Source of the DNA: an uncultured Pseudomonadota bacterium
GTDB taxonomy: Bacteria; Pseudomonadota; Alphaproteobacteria; JACZXZ01
DNA: 64,000 nt
Direction: 5' to 3'
Assembly (NCBI GenBank): GCA_963749075.1
Contig: CAVVLJ010000021.1
Span: forward strand, 512,001 to 576,000
The translations under genes and the position numbers were made by a program. The notes below the pieces were generated by a model. That model saw nothing but the letters and a program-made list of their open reading frames with translations. It had not been told where the DNA came from and searched no databases. Below are positions 1,306 through 56,529 of the stretch, in pieces. The stretch's first letter is position 1. Each line of letters opens with the position of its first letter.

Positions 1306-2107
1306 TCCAGTAGAGTGCGCCGACGAGGGCTGCGGCGGCAAGGAAGTTTCTGGCCAGCTTGTCGTATCGGGTTGCGATGCGCCGCCAATCCTTGATGCGG
1401 CAGAAGTAATTTTCGATCTTGTGCCGCCTGCGATAGATGCGCTTGGGACAATAGGCTTTCTTGGTGGCATTGCTGCGGCTGGGGATGACGGGCAAGGCAC
1501 CTTCGTCCCTGATCTGCTGGCGGACCTTTTGGCTGTCATAAGCCTTGTCGGCCGCGACGGCGAGGGGCGGCTTGGGCGTGTCCAGTACCGCTTCGACGAC
1601 TTGGCTGTCATGGACCTGTGCGCCCGTGACGATGAAGTTCAGCGGGCGGCCTTTGCCGTCGACGACCGCATGGATCTTCGTGCTGCGCCCGCCCCGGCTA
1701 ATACCGATCGCCTGATTTTTCTCCCCCCTTTTGCGCCGCTCGCCGCGCGATGCGCTTTCACGATGGTGCTGTCGATCAGATAGAGGCTATCGTGCGATGT
1801 CGCGGCCAGCGCGTCGAAAATCCGCTTCCAGATGCCGCGGCGAGACCAGCGGTTGAAGCGATTGTAGACCGTCGTGTAAGGCCCATAGCGCTCCGGCAAA
1901 TCTCGCCACGGCATGCCGGTGCGCAGCACGTAGAAGATGCCATTCATGATCCGGCGATCATCCTCTCGCGCCTTCTTGCGAAGGCCCGGCATCAACGGCT
2001 CCAGCACAGCCCATTCCTCGTCGCTCAAATCAAACCGCATGATCCACCTCCAACCACGGTGAATCACATTCGGACAACTTTTTCAAGACATTATGCGGGT
2101 ACAGACC
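1286..2107 (-). mobile_element. IS5-family insertion sequence (IS427-like group), about 822 bp, CTAG target duplication
   Basis: Imperfect terminal inverted repeats GGTCTGGACTCA (1286) and revcomp GGTCTGTACCCG (ending 2107); CTAG at 1282-1285 and 2108-2111; two-ORF transposase. Confidence 0.9.
1295..2040 (-). CDS. IS5-family transposase, orfA/orfB joined by a probable -1 programmed frameshift
   Basis: orfA MRFDLSDEEW...LRTGMPWRDLPERYGPYTTVYNRFNRW...IDSTIVKAH; orfB ...SRGGRSTKIHA...ADKAYDS...IENYFCRIKDWRRIATRYDK; slippery AAAAGGGGGG at 1732-1723. Confidence 0.88.
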
Positions 2108-2238
2108 CTAGCACTCTAGTTAGCTAGCGATACGAGGGGCATTATCTGCCCCGTATCACGCCGACGTGGACGGTAAGTTCACGCCGCGCGGCAGCGTTTA
2201 GACCTGGATAGAACGCGCGCAGAGGTGCCAGCAAGTCG

Positions 2239-2357
2239 ATGTTGCTTCTTGGCACCTTGCGGCGGTGCCGGCAGCATGCGGGCGCTTCCGGAGCTGAAGG
2301 AATAGCTGCCGCGCCACTGACATGGGCGGATGACTCAGGCTGACCCGAAGGCGACAT
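2239..2357 (+). repeat. Cassette-boundary element 2 (three sub-sites, cores at 2250, 2295, 2341)
   Basis: atgttgcttct-TGGCAC-cttgcggcggt ... TGAAGG ... atgactcaggc-TGACCC-gaaggcgacat; closely similar to 4191-4309 and 5447-5562. Confidence 0.85.
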
Positions 2358-2656
2358 TCAGTACTGCTGTCAATGGTACGTAACCAGAGGGGAAAGCCTA
2401 GTAGGTACTCACCGGGTTTAGCCCCGCGCCCCTCTATTCAATCAAGATCGGCGCAAGCTGCTTCCCTGGCTTGAGAGCCGCGGCGCGTGTCATGGCAGGG
2501 CAGAATAAGGCGCGCGATAGATGAAGCAGAGTAGTCCGCGCAATGGCCTGTTGCTTCCGCACGTCGCAAGGCGTATCAACCCAAATGGCTCCAATCGCCG
2601 CTGGATGAAACTTCAGTGGCATGTCAACTTGATCAGACAAATCAGCGTCAGGGAAG

Positions 2657-2881
2657 ATGATCGCCAGCGACGATAAGAAGGTTAAAACTAACCCCGCTCA
2701 AAAAAATGAGGCCCCTCCGAAGAGCAAGGGCACTTCAGGTGTAGACCTATCCAAGGCTAAGGGCGGCGAGATAGCTGCCGACTTACCCTCCGGCTATAGC
2801 AGGGGCGAGAGCCAGAAACCGGTTTCCCAAGCTTATAAAGATAACTGGAACGTGATTTTCGCGAAGAAAAGAAAGCGATAA
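2657..2881 (+). CDS. Small Lys-rich hypothetical protein
   Basis: 74-aa ORF after AGGGAAG; C-terminus YSRGESQKPVSQAYKDNWNVIFAKK looks protein-like; lies between two boundary elements. Confidence 0.55.
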   Translation: MIASDDKKVKTNPAQKNEAPPKSKGTSGVDLSKAKGGEIAADLPSGYSRGESQKPVSQAYKDNWNVIFAKKRKR

Positions 2882-2927
2882 TTCGCGTAATGGAGCAGGT
2901 GTAGCCGGTGTAGCAGTAGCTCGGCGC

Positions 2928-3047
2928 AGTCAAGCGCTCGGCCGCTTCTCCTCGTTCGCTGCGATGCATCAACACGGCCGCTATCGAAGGGTAACCCGAC
3001 GGTCTGCGTAAATTGCGGCACCGCGGCCCATGACCCAAAGCAGATAT
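2928..3047 (+). repeat. Cassette-boundary element 3 (divergent sequence, same spacing)
   Basis: Cores CGGCCG (2939), CGAAGG (2985) and TGACCC (3031) followed by aaagcagatat; 46/46-bp spacing versus 45/46 in elements 2 and 4. Confidence 0.65.
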
Positions 3048-3220
3048 TCTCCATCATGGCCCATATCTGAGTCAGCGCTGCCCAGGCCCGCGCTGGCGAC
3101 AGGTTCAGTTGGAATTTCTAAGGCGGCGCGGTGCGGATCAGCTCTCGCCAGCGCCGGTCTCGCGCGAAACATGCTCCGTCTGGACTACGCGGTACTGTAG
3201 GTCGATTTGCTCTGCTCGAG

Positions 3221-3703
3221 CTAACGCGGACCGACCTGCAACGGCGCAGGCAAGCTATCGGGGAGCTTGCCCAGCATCTGCAACGCCGCTTGCATACCGA
3301 TGATGTAGCCGTAATTCCCAAGTCCGCAGATGACCGCTCTAACGGCCGACGACAGTTTGGAATGCCGGTGCAGCTCATCGCGTGCGTGAATGTTCGATAT
3401 GTGGACCTCAATGATAGGACCTTCAAAAATCTTGAAGGCATCCAGCATCGCGATTGAGGTGAAAGAATATCCCGCTGGGTTGATGATGATCGCATCGGCG
3501 TCCTGGCGTGCAGATTGAATCAGGTCGACTAATACGCCCTCGTGGTTCGACTGATGAAACGCCAGGCGAGCGCCGGCGAATTTGGCGAATTCCTCGCAGC
3601 TTGCCTTGACGGTCTCGAGTGTCGTCCTGCCGTAAATGTCCGGCTCGCGGGTGCCAAGAAGGTTGAGGTTAGGCCCATTCAGAACCATCAGGCGTGCGGT
3701 CAT
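3221..3703 (-). CDS. aroQ: Type II 3-dehydroquinate dehydratase
   Basis: LNGPNLNLLGTREPDIYG, QSNHEG, IINPAGYS and EVHISNIHAR motifs. Confidence 0.93.
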   Translation of the reverse strand: MTARLMVLNGPNLNLLGTREPDIYGRTTLETVKASCEEFAKFAGARLAFHQSNHEGVLVDLIQSARQDADAIIINPAGYSFTSIAMLDAFKIFEGPIIEVHISNIHARDELHRHSKLSSAVRAVICGLGNYGYIIGMQAALQMLGKLPDSLPAPLQVGPR

Positions 3704-3751
3704 GGCTTTTCCTTTCGGGCCTTCAGTTTCTGGATTGTGAGACGGTCTAGC

Positions 3752-4072
3752 TTATTTTCCGTCATGGAACAGCGTCGCGAGCGCCTCGGTGGTCCGCACA
3801 AGGATGCCCGCGTCGACACCAACGGCCGTAAAGGTCGTGCCAAGTTCGATGCAACGAGCCGCAAATGCGGCGGCGGGTGTCAAGATGCCAGCGGGCTTGC
3901 CGCACGTGCGAATTCGCCTGATGGCATCTTCGATGATCATCTTGACCTTCGGATGGCCAGGTTCGCCAACGTGGCCGAGGCTCGCCGCCAGATCGGTCGG
4001 GCCGATGAACACACCATTGACACCGTCGATTGACGCAATCTGCTCCAGGCGATCGAGCGCCTCAGCTACTGA
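3752..4072 (-). pseudogene. 5'-truncated HpcH/HpaI (HpaI/GarL-type) aldolase fragment
   Basis: EALDRLEQIASIDGVNGVFIGPTDLAASLGHVG..HP...GKPAGIL is the C-terminal half only; in-frame TGA immediately upstream. Confidence 0.8.
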
Positions 4073-4190
4073 CGATCACCGCCCGATGATAGCACTCCGA
4101 AGGTACTCGAAGCCTCGATATCTTGCGCGCTGGCACGCCGAGGGTGCGACTTTCCATATCGGAATGACTGTCTGCCGGCGCCTATCGTGA

Positions 4191-4309
4191 AAGTCTGTTC
4201 GTGGCACCTTGCGGCGGTGCCGGCAGCGTGCGGGCGTGTCCGGGGTTGAAGGAATAACTGCCGCGCCGCCGACGTGGGCGCATGGCCCAGGATGACCCGA
4301 ACCAGACAG
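4191..4309 (+). repeat. Cassette-boundary element 4 (cores at 4202, 4247, 4293)
   Basis: aagtctgttcg-TGGCAC-cttgcggcggt ... gtgtccggggt-TGAAGG ... atggcccagga-TGACCC-gaaccagacag. Confidence 0.88.
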
Positions 4310-4462
4310 CCGCGATGATCCAGACCCGCACCGGCATCGTGGGTGCTTGCCCGACGTATCGAAACGGGGCAGATTTCCGTCCGGGCCAGAGAGCATCTGG
4401 GGCATGTAGGTCGCAAGGGGCCTCCGAGAGGATAGGTTTGGCCGAACGCACAGGAGCGAGCC

Positions 4463-4942
4463 ATGAGACAGGCAGGAAGAATTGCGGCGACGGCTGTTGG
4501 CGTCTTGCTCGCGCTGACTGCGGCGGCGCTACCGGCACGGGCTCAAGTCCCATGCTCGACCGTTTGCAGTAGGTACGATCAAGGTCAATGCGTTCAGTAC
4601 ACGCACTACGGCTGCGAGGGCGCGGCCCCGTCCGCCCCCGCCAACAGCTACGGCGCTATTGCCTTCGGCTCCAAGAGCAGGGCCTGGGGCGTGTCCTATC
4701 ATTGGGGCAGCGAGGCGAAAGCGGAGAGCGTTGCCATGCAAAGCTGCAAGCAGCACGGCGACGATTGCGAAGTGATGGTGTGGTTCGACCGCAAATGCGG
4801 AGCGGTGGTGGCGGCCGACGGTGCCGCCGCCTTTTGGGGGCTTGGCGACAGCGAAGCCGAGGCGCGCGCGGACGCCCAAACCAAATGCGAGCAAGGCGGC
4901 GGCAAGGGTTGCAAGGTGTGGGCTTATCAGTGTTCGAAGTGA
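4463..4942 (+). CDS. Secreted Cys-rich DUF4189-like protein
   Basis: AGGAG RBS; signal peptide; YGAIAF...AWGVSY...AESVAMQSC....C.VMVWF..CGA pattern. Confidence 0.75.
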   Translation: MRQAGRIAATAVGVLLALTAAALPARAQVPCSTVCSRYDQGQCVQYTHYGCEGAAPSAPANSYGAIAFGSKSRAWGVSYHWGSEAKAESVAMQSCKQHGDDCEVMVWFDRKCGAVVAADGAAAFWGLGDSEAEARADAQTKCEQGGGKGCKVWAYQCSK

Positions 4943-4968
4943 GGGTTTGGAAGTCTGACCGCGGGCGA

Positions 4969-5322
4969 GTGAGGGTGCCTCTCATCGTCAGCCTCCTCCT
5001 AATTTTCCTTCGTCCCGCAATCGCCGACTGTGTGACCGGCGAACATTTCGCCTGTGTGACGCTGGATGGATTTGACGAGGTGGCAGCGGCGCTGAAAGCG
5101 GGCAATCCAAACGTCATTCACACGCCGGGTTGCGATTATACGGAGCCGGGTCACAAAGTCGAAGTAATAGGACCGATGGCCGCTCTCGCCGAACCCATTG
5201 CCATATTCTATGGCGATTCGGCAGTCACCAGAGCGAGCGGCGTGCCCGATGTATTTCGATCATTGGCGCAGTCAGGATGGATCCACGTCTGGACGATCAA
5301 GGAGAACGTTGTATGCAATTGA
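4969..5322 (+). CDS. Hypothetical secreted protein
   Basis: GTG start, hydrophobic signal (VPLIVSLLLIFLRPAIA), four Cys; directly follows the DUF4189-like gene. Confidence 0.5.
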   Translation: MRVPLIVSLLLIFLRPAIADCVTGEHFACVTLDGFDEVAAALKAGNPNVIHTPGCDYTEPGHKVEVIGPMAALAEPIAIFYGDSAVTRASGVPDVFRSLAQSGWIHVWTIKENVVCN

Positions 5323-5446
5323 AGCACTATCCCTCTTTCGGCGGGGTTGCCGCGCTGTCGCTCTCTGGCTTAGTCACGATTTCTCTTGTTGCGTGCATGG
5401 GTTGCCTTCGATCGTTCAGATGAAGTCCGGTGTGCGGTCCGGCGCG

Positions 5447-5562
5447 ATGTCTGCTTATGGCACCTTGCGGCGGTGCCGGCAGCGTGCAGGCGTGTCCGGG
5501 GTTGAAGGAATAGCTGCCGCGCCGCTGACGTGGTCGGATGGCCCAGGATCTCGAGCGGACGC
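5447..5562 (+). repeat. Cassette-boundary element 5 (third core degenerate)
   Basis: atgtctgctta-TGGCAC-cttgcggcggt; body nearly identical to element 4; right end reads ggatctcgagcggacg instead of ggaTGACCCgaagcggaca. Confidence 0.82.
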
Positions 5563-5755
5563 CGGCATTCGTGCATCGTTTAGCGCGTGTACCTTCCTCG
5601 AAATTCATACGACGGCGCAATCGCCGCTTGCCGCACGGGCGTCGACACCATAACGAGCCGAACCGCGGGCCTGTTCAGGGCAAAGCGTTGCTCGCGACCG
5701 TGGTGCCGATGGCCTGAATCGGCAGCCCGCAAGACCGATCGTCGTGCCTCTTGAT

Positions 5756-6256
5756 CTATTTTGCGGCCCCGAAGAACTGATAGGTCGCGGAGTAGCGCAT
5801 TCGGGCCTGCTCGCCCAAGTGGCTTGCGTCGCAGCCGGTTGCAGGTGCCGCACCCCCCTTGGTGTCGGCCCGGCGGATCGTCGTGACCGCGGCGAGGCTC
5901 CCCGAACCCTCGTGGGTCTTGACCTCGAGGAGGAGCCAGGGAACAGCGCCAGGTTGAGGCGCCTCCGCCTTCGCGAAGATCGCGCCGGTGACCTCGGAGC
6001 CGTCGGCGAGCTTCCAGCCGGGGCCCGCGAAGTGGGTTCCGATCTGCCTTCCCTTAGCGTCGAAGAGATTGGCCTCGGGCGCCTTGAATACCCACTCCGG
6101 TCCCTTGTCCTTGGCCTCGCAGGAATAGATCTGAACTCCATCGGCCTCAGCCTCGGCCAGGAGCGGCGCACCCGCTGGCGGGGCCACCGCGGCCTGGCCG
6201 GCGAGCGCGGGCACTGTGCAGAGGATGAGCAAGGCGCCGGCGACACGAATGATCAT
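5756..6256 (-). CDS. DUF3455-family secreted protein
   Basis: Signal peptide; GVQIYSC...W.FKAPEA.L...GTHFAGP.W...AVPWLLL...DTKGG.AP...YSATY. Confidence 0.8.
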   Translation of the reverse strand: MIIRVAGALLILCTVPALAGQAAVAPPAGAPLLAEAEADGVQIYSCEAKDKGPEWVFKAPEANLFDAKGRQIGTHFAGPGWKLADGSEVTGAIFAKAEAPQPGAVPWLLLEVKTHEGSGSLAAVTTIRRADTKGGAAPATGCDASHLGEQARMRYSATYQFFGAAK

Positions 6257-55805: not shown

Positions 55806-56529
55806 GTGCGCCGTGACAAGGCGGCGCTTTCCAGTGGGTGCAAGGCCCACCCGGCAAGCGCTCCAGCCGGAAGCAATCGGAGCAGTCATGGAGGCAACGA
55901 AATGGCTGAAGCCTTCGGATAGCGGGTCACGAATTGGTGACAGCGCGAGTGTGCAGGCCGCAACGCGAGTGAACGCCGAGCAAGCCTCGAAAAGGACGAT
56001 GTGCAGGCCGACCCGACGACCCTTTCGGGGAAGGCTGATACGCCTGGGTGAATGAGCGAAACCTACGGCCAGGCGCTGCACCGGGGTAGTGGCGGCAGCA
56101 TGTACACAAGGAAAGCGTACGCAACACGGGAAGCTCCAAGGCGTGGTCAGGGATGACCAACCGGACGCCCGCGAGGGACAGGCCGGGCGCCGTGGGGTGG
56201 CGGAGAGGTTCGTAGTACCGCTGAAGCCGGGTAACGCCGGTGGAGGGAAGGGGCCTCAGTTCAAGACAGACGCAATACGCGGTGAGGGACCTGGAGATTG
56301 GGCAACCTATCAACTCCGAAGAGTGTTCAGAAACTGCAGATGGTGTTGCACGCGAACTGTGAAGGCGTGAGGTCTTGTCCGAGAGCCGGATGCGGGAGAT
56401 CCGCACGTCCGGTTCGATGAGCGGGGTGTGGAAACGGAGCCAGGGTCGAACCAGTGAGGCACCGCCAGACGAAAGGGGCGGGAACAGATATGTTCGGCCT
56501 ACAGCCACCGCGCCACACCTCGACTCTAC
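55806..56529 (+). mobile_element. Group II intron, 724 nt, reverse transcriptase ORF deleted
   Basis: 5' GTGCG; domain V GAGCCGGATGCGGGAGATCCGCACGTCCGGTTC at 56383-56415; 3' end CGACTCTAC; IEP start remnant TTG-GNLSTPKSVQKLQMVLHA at 56298 joined directly to ...AAGGCGTGA. Confidence 0.9.

Follow-up and report, generated by a model that had tools for sequence, protein, structure and literature searches.

The REP and BIME repeats of Enterobacteria and Pseudomonas are composite extragenic elements in which short palindromic units stand at regular spacing at the 3′ ends of genes. They are linked to IS insertion and to genome rearrangement, and their family content differs sharply between related lineages; the element reported here resembles them in each of these respects. 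The REPs of BIMEs are described as lying in alternating orientation (PMC2817692). For Br-REP1 of Bradyrhizobium japonicum, the published account describes three palindromes that give three stem-loops in the 3′-UTRs of convergent genes, and an abundance that shifts fast among related Alphaproteobacteria (Hahn et al. 2016, PMC5082802). The CGTC-tagged REP families, as characterised in their report, are mostly alphaproteobacterial and carry a tag that is often TGTC, stems of 8-9 bp, loops of 4-5 nt and an unpaired CCA tail; they form mostly head-to-head dimers, and the report describes them as having no linked transposase genes (Di Nocera et al. 2013, PMC3733652). The spread and persistence of REP-type repeats in the absence of a RAYT transposase is a standing question.

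Two kinds of recombination site are also relevant. The attC sites of Vibrio chromosomal integrons are imperfect palindromes of ~120 bp, co-oriented, which lie between gene units of 0.5-3 kb whose content varies by strain; their R''/R' boxes read RYYYAAC ... GTTRRRY. The dif/Xer sites measure 28 bp, laid out as 11+6+11, and a dif site occurs once, at the terminus.

Here we describe a 119-bp repeat present in three copies in a 64,000-nt stretch of alphaproteobacterial DNA, hereafter the window. We think it likely, at a probability of roughly 0.6, that this element is a genus-specific, non-coding interspersed repeat of the REP/BIME kind, which would extrude hairpins and serve as an enzyme-cut joint between gene blocks. 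It is best filed with the REP/BIME-type repeats as a new tripartite variant.

Three copies and two solo half-sites in the window

The repeat occupies 2239-2357, 4191-4309 and 5447-5560 of the window. These copies and the features around them are as follows.

585-874, − strand: second IS5-like transposase gene fragment (55 codons) with its upstream region
875-891, + strand: solo half-site, TGACCC (875-880), CAAT, GAGACAT; abuts the truncated IS5-like transposase gene region at 585-874
1286-2107, − strand: IS5-family insertion sequence of 822 bp with a DUF4096 N-terminal ORF; CTAG duplication at 1282-1285 / 2108-2111
2239-2357, + strand: copy 1 of the 119-bp element (left arm 2239-2249; TGGCAC 2250-2255; TGAAGG 2295-2300; TGACCC 2341-2346; right arm 2347-2357)
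3031-3047, + strand: solo half-site, TGACCC (3031-3036), AAAG, CAGATAT
3037-4292: gene block between hexamers, with a dehydroquinase and a truncated aldolase
3221-3703, − strand: type II dehydroquinase
3752-4060, − strand: HpcH/HpaI aldolase, truncated (profile positions 131-219 only)
4191-4309, + strand: copy 2 of the 119-bp element (left arm 4191-4201; TGGCAC 4202-4207; TGAAGG 4247-4252; TGACCC 4293-4298; right arm 4299-4309)
4299-5446: gene block with a DUF4189 gene (4463-4942, + strand)
5447-5560, + strand: copy 3 of the repeat (left arm 5447-5457; TGGCAC 5458-5463; TGAAGG 5503-5508; third hexamer gone, GGAT and then CTCGAG in its place; right arm GAGCGGAC, 5553-5560)

The hexamers that the original prediction placed at 2250/2295/2341 and 4202/4247/4293 can be read directly in the window sequence as TGGCAC/TGAAGG/TGACCC, at a pitch of 45 and then 46 bp. 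Repeat finding gave identities of 85% and 78% over 111 nt for the window copies, and one 24-mer of the repeat occurs three times in the window against zero expected. All three copies lie between ORFs with family matches. Two reading frames that overlap the element were rejected as genes. The 18-codon ORF that runs from NTG-GCA-CC to the TAG of GGAATAG suffers a 1-nt deletion in one copy and non-conservative changes, and the minus-strand ORF at 2142-2357 is an open frame of GC-rich DNA.

A further copy had been proposed at 2939-3047, where the family profile finds no match even at E<=10. Only the half-site at 3031-3047 stands there; the stretch to its left, 2939-3030, holds no detectable copy of the element. 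The 91 nt upstream of 3031 agree with the consensus at 39/91 positions, which ranks 13 of 1544 genomic TGACCC sites and is at most a hint of very distant relatedness.

Extent and consensus of the repeat family

The source genome (G000, 96% complete) contains six matches to the repeat. It is present in four of the five other genomes of the genus, at about 1-10 copies per genome within the genus, and absent from all 55 searched genomes of other genera. Scanning metagenome contigs for the pattern yielded 50 stretches, 32 of which contained profile matches (46 matches in total). After removal of duplicates, the copy set comprised 41 full and 17 partial copies, drawn from four genus genomes and the metagenomes.

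The 41 full copies align over a conserved core of 97 nt that runs from TGGCAC to TGACCC. TGGCAC and TGAAGG are each retained in 37/41 copies and TGACCC in 34/41. The arms outside the core are semi-conserved: the left one reads (A)TGTCYG-N4 and the right one N4-CRGACA(T). The predicted 45-46-bp spacing is borne out, in that the hexamers are near-fixed across these copies and an identical pitch is found in a second, canonical family described below. Partial copies are cut at many and varied points, as expected of decaying repeats. In four public soil and peat runs, contig depth was 140-172 on the elements vs about 10-25 beside them. The plasmid collection had no match to the window's family nor to the canonical one, and simple GTCYG...CRGAC palindromes were not enriched in the source genome at any spacing from 0 to 30.

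Several loci depart from this consensus. The same left arm and TGGCAC precede unrelated interiors at L082:2265-2390, at about 560 and 5650 in L035 and about 5110 in L134, and in the source genome at C22:58224 (− strand) and C2:74427; one such divergent sequence terminates in GATTGACCC plus a complementary right arm. Thus, several "core" families seem to have common ends. An internally deleted short element, TGGCACC, 16 nt and TGACCC, lies at C4:165056-165095 of the source genome, within locus L031 (C4:165040-165110). Many ABC_sub_bind paralogues (L031, L015, L111, L113, L009) carry, 11-14 nt past the stop codon, ATGTCCGG-N4-GGGTC, which is the right half-site on the strand of the ABC_sub_bind gene.

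Relatives with three palindromes in other lineages

Of 301 genomes sampled across the class, 13 carry the 24-nt pattern GTCCG-N4-TGACCC-N4-CGGAC, at up to 30 per genome; a reversed-pattern control gave 0 in all genomes, and the palindrome itself gave 0 in the 11 genomes of the window's own order. In four of these 13 genomes, a 28-bp unit, ATGTCCG-N14-CGGACAT, occurs 20, 10, 4 and 3 times per strand, with centres that are mostly TGACCC or TGGCTA. In two genomes of another alphaproteobacterial family (G232 and G060), these units are grouped in threes that span 119 nt in all. Their order is a TGGCTA unit, a unit with a GC-rich 7-nt centre and a TGACCC unit, and successive hexamers start at intervals of 45 and 46 bp. 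Matches to this canonical composite element number at least 42 in G232 and 18 in G060. Its palindromes are 11+6(7)+11, in units of 28-29 bp, and units 1 and 3 form on average 7.3-7.9 Watson-Crick pairs of 11. On some G232 contigs (C137 and C169; L164 and L165), a canonical element occupies nearly each intergenic gap, every 1-3 kb, and the elements there are co-oriented by hexamer order.

The window's element and the canonical one agree in length, pitch and unit order, and their outer hexamers are almost alike. The consensus of the window's family and that of the canonical element are identical, ungapped, at 60/119 positions. With the outer arms and two outer hexamers left aside, 37/93 positions still agree (expected 23 ± 4), a value reached by 0/92 circular shifts and 1/5000 shuffles. 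Profile searches between the two families were not significant (best E 0.5-4), so homology rests on the architecture and on the ungapped consensus test. From these comparisons, the window's element appears to descend from, or share ancestry with, the tripartite element of other alphaproteobacterial lineages, and we treat its family as a diverged relative without claiming proven descent.

The sequences show which parts were kept. In the window's genus, units 1 and 3 each retain their outer arm and none of the three centres has been lost, whereas the inner arms have decayed, with other local hairpins in their place. The original prediction had three inverted-repeat sub-sites of 11+6+11 in the window's family itself. 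Their arms form on average 3.8, 2.8 and 4.2 Watson-Crick pairs of 11; the overall pairing of 54.2% is at shuffle level (255/500 shuffles as high), and the sub-sites are not dyad-symmetric. The predicted geometry with two hexamer types is genuine in the relatives; in the window's genus the sub-sites are not palindromic.

Copies at synteny breaks

Relatives differ in gene order at the places where copies are located, and reshuffled gene blocks are joined at the elements. Homology between related loci begins or ends exactly at TGACCC or TGGCAC. Metagenome contig L098 shares copy 2 and its left flank with the window and diverges right after GACCC. To the right of 3031, it is 95% identical to the window, starting exactly at TGACCC; at the 3031 position it has a full copy of the element, and the sequence left of there is unrelated to the window. 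The block 3037-4292 is thus common to both, with different neighbours on either side. On the right of copy 2, the block with the DUF4189 gene has a homologue in G003:C149 that starts at a simple, core-less unit, GTCGG-AGCT-TGGCCC-GAAC-CAGAC. The 5′ region of the truncated IS5-like transposase gene terminates at TGACCC in five loci, with a different right arm each time. In contigs of the soil and peat runs, the sequences of other copies depart from the window sequence at 2250 and right after 4298. The missing 5′ part of the aldolase gene would fall where the left flank of copy 2 begins.

We compared the flanks of 42 distinct copies that had at least 100 nt on either side. None of the 861 pairs has both flanks in common; 3 pairs agree on the left side only and 11 on the right side only, and most of these 11 involve 3′ ends of paralogous ABC_sub_bind genes. 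Where copies are neighbours on a contig, at distances of 0.7-5.1 kb, they are co-oriented in 21/21 pairs, a count that, like those for flanks, is not fully independent because some contigs may stem from overlapping populations. One pair 12.6 kb apart (G003:C28) is in opposite orientation. GC skew was too weak for use in a comparison with orientation (|skew| <= 0.013).

Such a pattern could arise if a gene-cassette system used the elements for site-specific recombination, either in the manner of attC or in that of dif, with 11-bp arms for binding and a 6-bp crossover. A tyrosine recombinase encoded elsewhere would move blocks between co-oriented elements, crossing over in TGGCAC/TGACCC. Excision and re-insertion of whole blocks would account for the lack of any two copies with both flanks in common, and the co-orientation of adjacent copies, the shared block with unlike neighbours in L098, the exact breaks at hexamers where one partner is without the core, and the 11+6+11 geometry of the relatives all fit. 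So do two core-less sites whose hexamer, TGGCCC, looks like a hybrid of TGGCAC and TGACCC (L082:1492-1515 and L052, about 2793-2820). At both, the right flank is also found beside a full copy elsewhere, but these are two cases only, and chance matches dominate a wider scan for such sites.

Other observations weigh against recombination by cassette exchange, and we consider it unlikely. In the source genome, the best match to the integron integrase model TIGR02249 scores 78 bits, below the cut-off of 265, and no tyrosine-recombinase-like match comes closer than 32 kb to a copy. What separates the copies is a set of ordinary genes for metabolism or regulation, which run in both directions and some of which have upstream regions of their own: dehydroquinase, an aldolase fragment, DUF4189, malic enzyme, amidohydrolase, methyltransferase, GGDEF and EAL proteins and ABC_sub_bind binding proteins. 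RYYYAAC/GTTRRRY boxes are absent, the ends of the 41 copies being ATGTCYG-N4 and N4-CRGACAT. Nor was a circular or excised form seen. The element is thus like an integron attC site in its length of ~120 bp and in separating gene units as a co-oriented site, and unlike it in having no IntI, no R/L boxes and genes in both orientations that include housekeeping-type enzymes. The wider proposal, that soil Alphaproteobacteria have an unrecognised gene-cassette system which recombines at the tripartite 119-bp elements, seems to us distinctly doubtful. Each 28-bp unit would then bind the recombinase, with crossover in the hexamer, and TGGCAC/TGGCTA vs TGACCC would give direction.

In run X5, one contig joins 4298 back to 4202 (97 back, with 51 nt on the shorter side). 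Such a joint of the 97-nt core would be head-to-tail, as in a tandem dimer or a circle junction; no head-to-tail core dimers occur in the loci examined. No empty site was found among all loci examined either, so insertion itself was not seen.

The original prediction also likened the sub-sites to Xer/dif-type or serine-resolvase res sites, a membership that the analysis does not support. Canonical relatives are like dif/Xer sites in their 11+6+11 layout, but are set apart by copy number and symmetry, being multi-copy, near-perfect hairpin palindromes of the REP kind; we know of no Xer dependence for these elements. No recombinase gene adjoins any copy examined. A res site has three dimer sub-sites beside a resolvase gene, whereas the two PF00239 serine recombinase genes of the source genome (C16:1.20 Mb and C21:658 kb) are far from the copies, either 141 kb or more along the contig or on a different one, and the sub-sites of the window's family have no dyad symmetry. 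The source genome has no IS110-type DEDD enzyme and 0 matches to the Y1 transposase (PF01797), for which the control was positive in 6/14 genomes; the Y1 transposase is present in 1/5 genomes rich in canonical units.

Arm pairing, covariation and folding

The outermost arms had been described as complementary within an element and as varying together. Complementarity holds within copies 1 and 2, and these two happen to rank among the best-paired; as a general rule, co-variation is weak. Over the 11 positions of the outer arms, own-copy pairing averages 5.51 vs 5.16 for arms from different copies (68/2000 permutations as high). For the four arm bases adjoining the core, the two figures are 1.56 and 1.16 of 4 (3/2000 permutations). 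Given this weak difference, the outer arms are for the most part an inverted repeat of fixed sequence (ATGTCYG / CRGACAT). On the alignment, covariation scores 0.128 vs 0.109 in shuffles (4/500), and the outer helix together with the local hairpins is 78.9% paired vs 77.1 ± 0.6 (1/500), although related sequences can surpass such shuffles without any structure.

Conservation for an RNA fold would make the element act mainly as RNA, whether as a 3′-UTR terminator, a 3′-exonuclease stabiliser or a source of small RNA. We judge this improbable. Copies are intergenic and often lie just past stop codons, and REPs and Br-REP1 are described as acting or being transcribed in 3′-UTRs (PMC5082802). An ABC_sub_bind-type stop lies within 45 nt of 8/46 copies. 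The element faces that gene either way, however, with 2 on the same strand and 6 on the opposite one. Stop-to-stop frames proved unreliable as a measure of proximity to ORF ends in this GC-rich DNA. Local hairpins inside the element are 81-92% paired across copies, and a mutual-information scan found only one clean Watson-Crick covarying pair, a compensatory change in one tiny hairpin (columns 34:39; CG 26, GC 6, UG 4). Against these, the RNAalifold consensus has only 11 pairs (−7.2 kcal/mol) and no compensatory pair, and RNA fold energies of the window copies equal those of shuffles on both strands (z −0.15 to +0.70). Comparison with the curated covariance models of Rfam gave no match to the element at gathering score, nor at E<=10 over 2000-5800. 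The truncation of many copies at varied points is likewise what decaying DNA repeats would give.

Folded as DNA, the window copies do no better than shuffles (z −1.55, +0.34 and +1.31), whereas the canonical element outdoes its shuffles by a wide margin (z −4.3). Extrusion of hairpins is accordingly less plausible in the window's family than in the canonical element.

Insertion sequences near the copies

The site of the 822-bp insertion sequence at 1286-2107 is uninterrupted, with a single CTAG, in contigs of runs X3 and X5, and the genome holds at least 8 copies of this insertion sequence. The last ~75-160 nt of the 585-874 block recur in four other genus loci, always up to TGACCC and then with a different right arm.

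It is very improbable that the element is a MITE left by an internally deleted IS5-family IS (end ...ATGACCC) and moved by a resident transposase: the IS5-like 5′ region does terminate in ...GCGAATGACCC at five loci with a different right arm after each, its last 28 nt and those of the element agree at about 19/28 and IS5-family copies are numerous in the genome, but the arms have a 7-bp inverted consensus while the bases that flank them are not direct repeats and show no target-site duplication, the 97-nt core lacks inverted repeats at its two ends (TGGCAC... and ...TGACCC), a full-length copy of that IS is absent from 6 genus genomes (55-aa query), the intact IS of the window has different ends and a CTAG duplication, and the tripartite palindromic relatives explain the ends better.

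A tripartite repeat of the REP/BIME kind

We return to the REP/BIME-type repeat as the preferred reading. REP and BIME units are short imperfect palindromes of 20-40 bp, repeated and extragenic; here the units measure 28-29 bp in the relatives, and in the window's family only the outermost arms pair (mean 5.5/11). Spacing is regular, at 45 and 46 bp in both families. REP/BIME repeats reach high copy number (>100 per genome), compared with 6 in the source genome, 1-10 in congeners and at least 42 in G232; at some 5-10 copies per genome, the window's family is sparse beside classical REPs, and the cognate RAYT (Y1 HUH transposase) of REPs and REPINs has no counterpart in the source genome. Unlike REP/BIME elements, those described here have three units with 11-bp stems and 6-7-nt loops in one fixed order, the inner ones decayed in the window's genus.

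Br-REP1 and the tripartite element both have three palindromes, but the published central palindrome of Br-REP1, by which alone the two were compared, is unrelated. By their published description, the CGTC-tagged REPs differ from the present elements, which have 11-bp stems, 6-7-nt loops and three tandem units. TGTC is present in the arm ATGTCYG of the window's family, but is paired there with GACA. In the full texts searched, unit strings of 15-19 letters had no occurrence, and strings of 10 letters led to unrelated papers only.

How such a repeat might work can be outlined from its architecture. The terminal palindromes would extrude from the DNA as hairpins or cruciforms, and a host or mobile-element enzyme may cut or join at or beside the hexamer loop. 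With cutting or joining there, the elements would be both insertion targets and recombination joints that shuffle the intervening gene blocks. Where transcribed, the palindromes may form 3′-end stem-loops, as with REPs elsewhere, probably as a by-product and not as the reason for the architecture.

What is new is the definition of a tripartite element with a fixed 45/46-bp pitch, common to at least two distant alphaproteobacterial lineages; a decayed variant that reveals the kept parts, namely the outer arms and three hexamers; and copies that stand at synteny breaks, with the break ends on the hexamers. These findings jointly supply a concrete, testable site for the putative cutting or joining activity. 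On the practical side, the repeats break metagenome assemblies, with depth spikes and contig ends, and give spurious ORFs. Elsewhere in the window, Rfam identified group II intron RNA domains at 55832-56529 (RF02003, 99.5 bits; RF00029, 44.4 bits).
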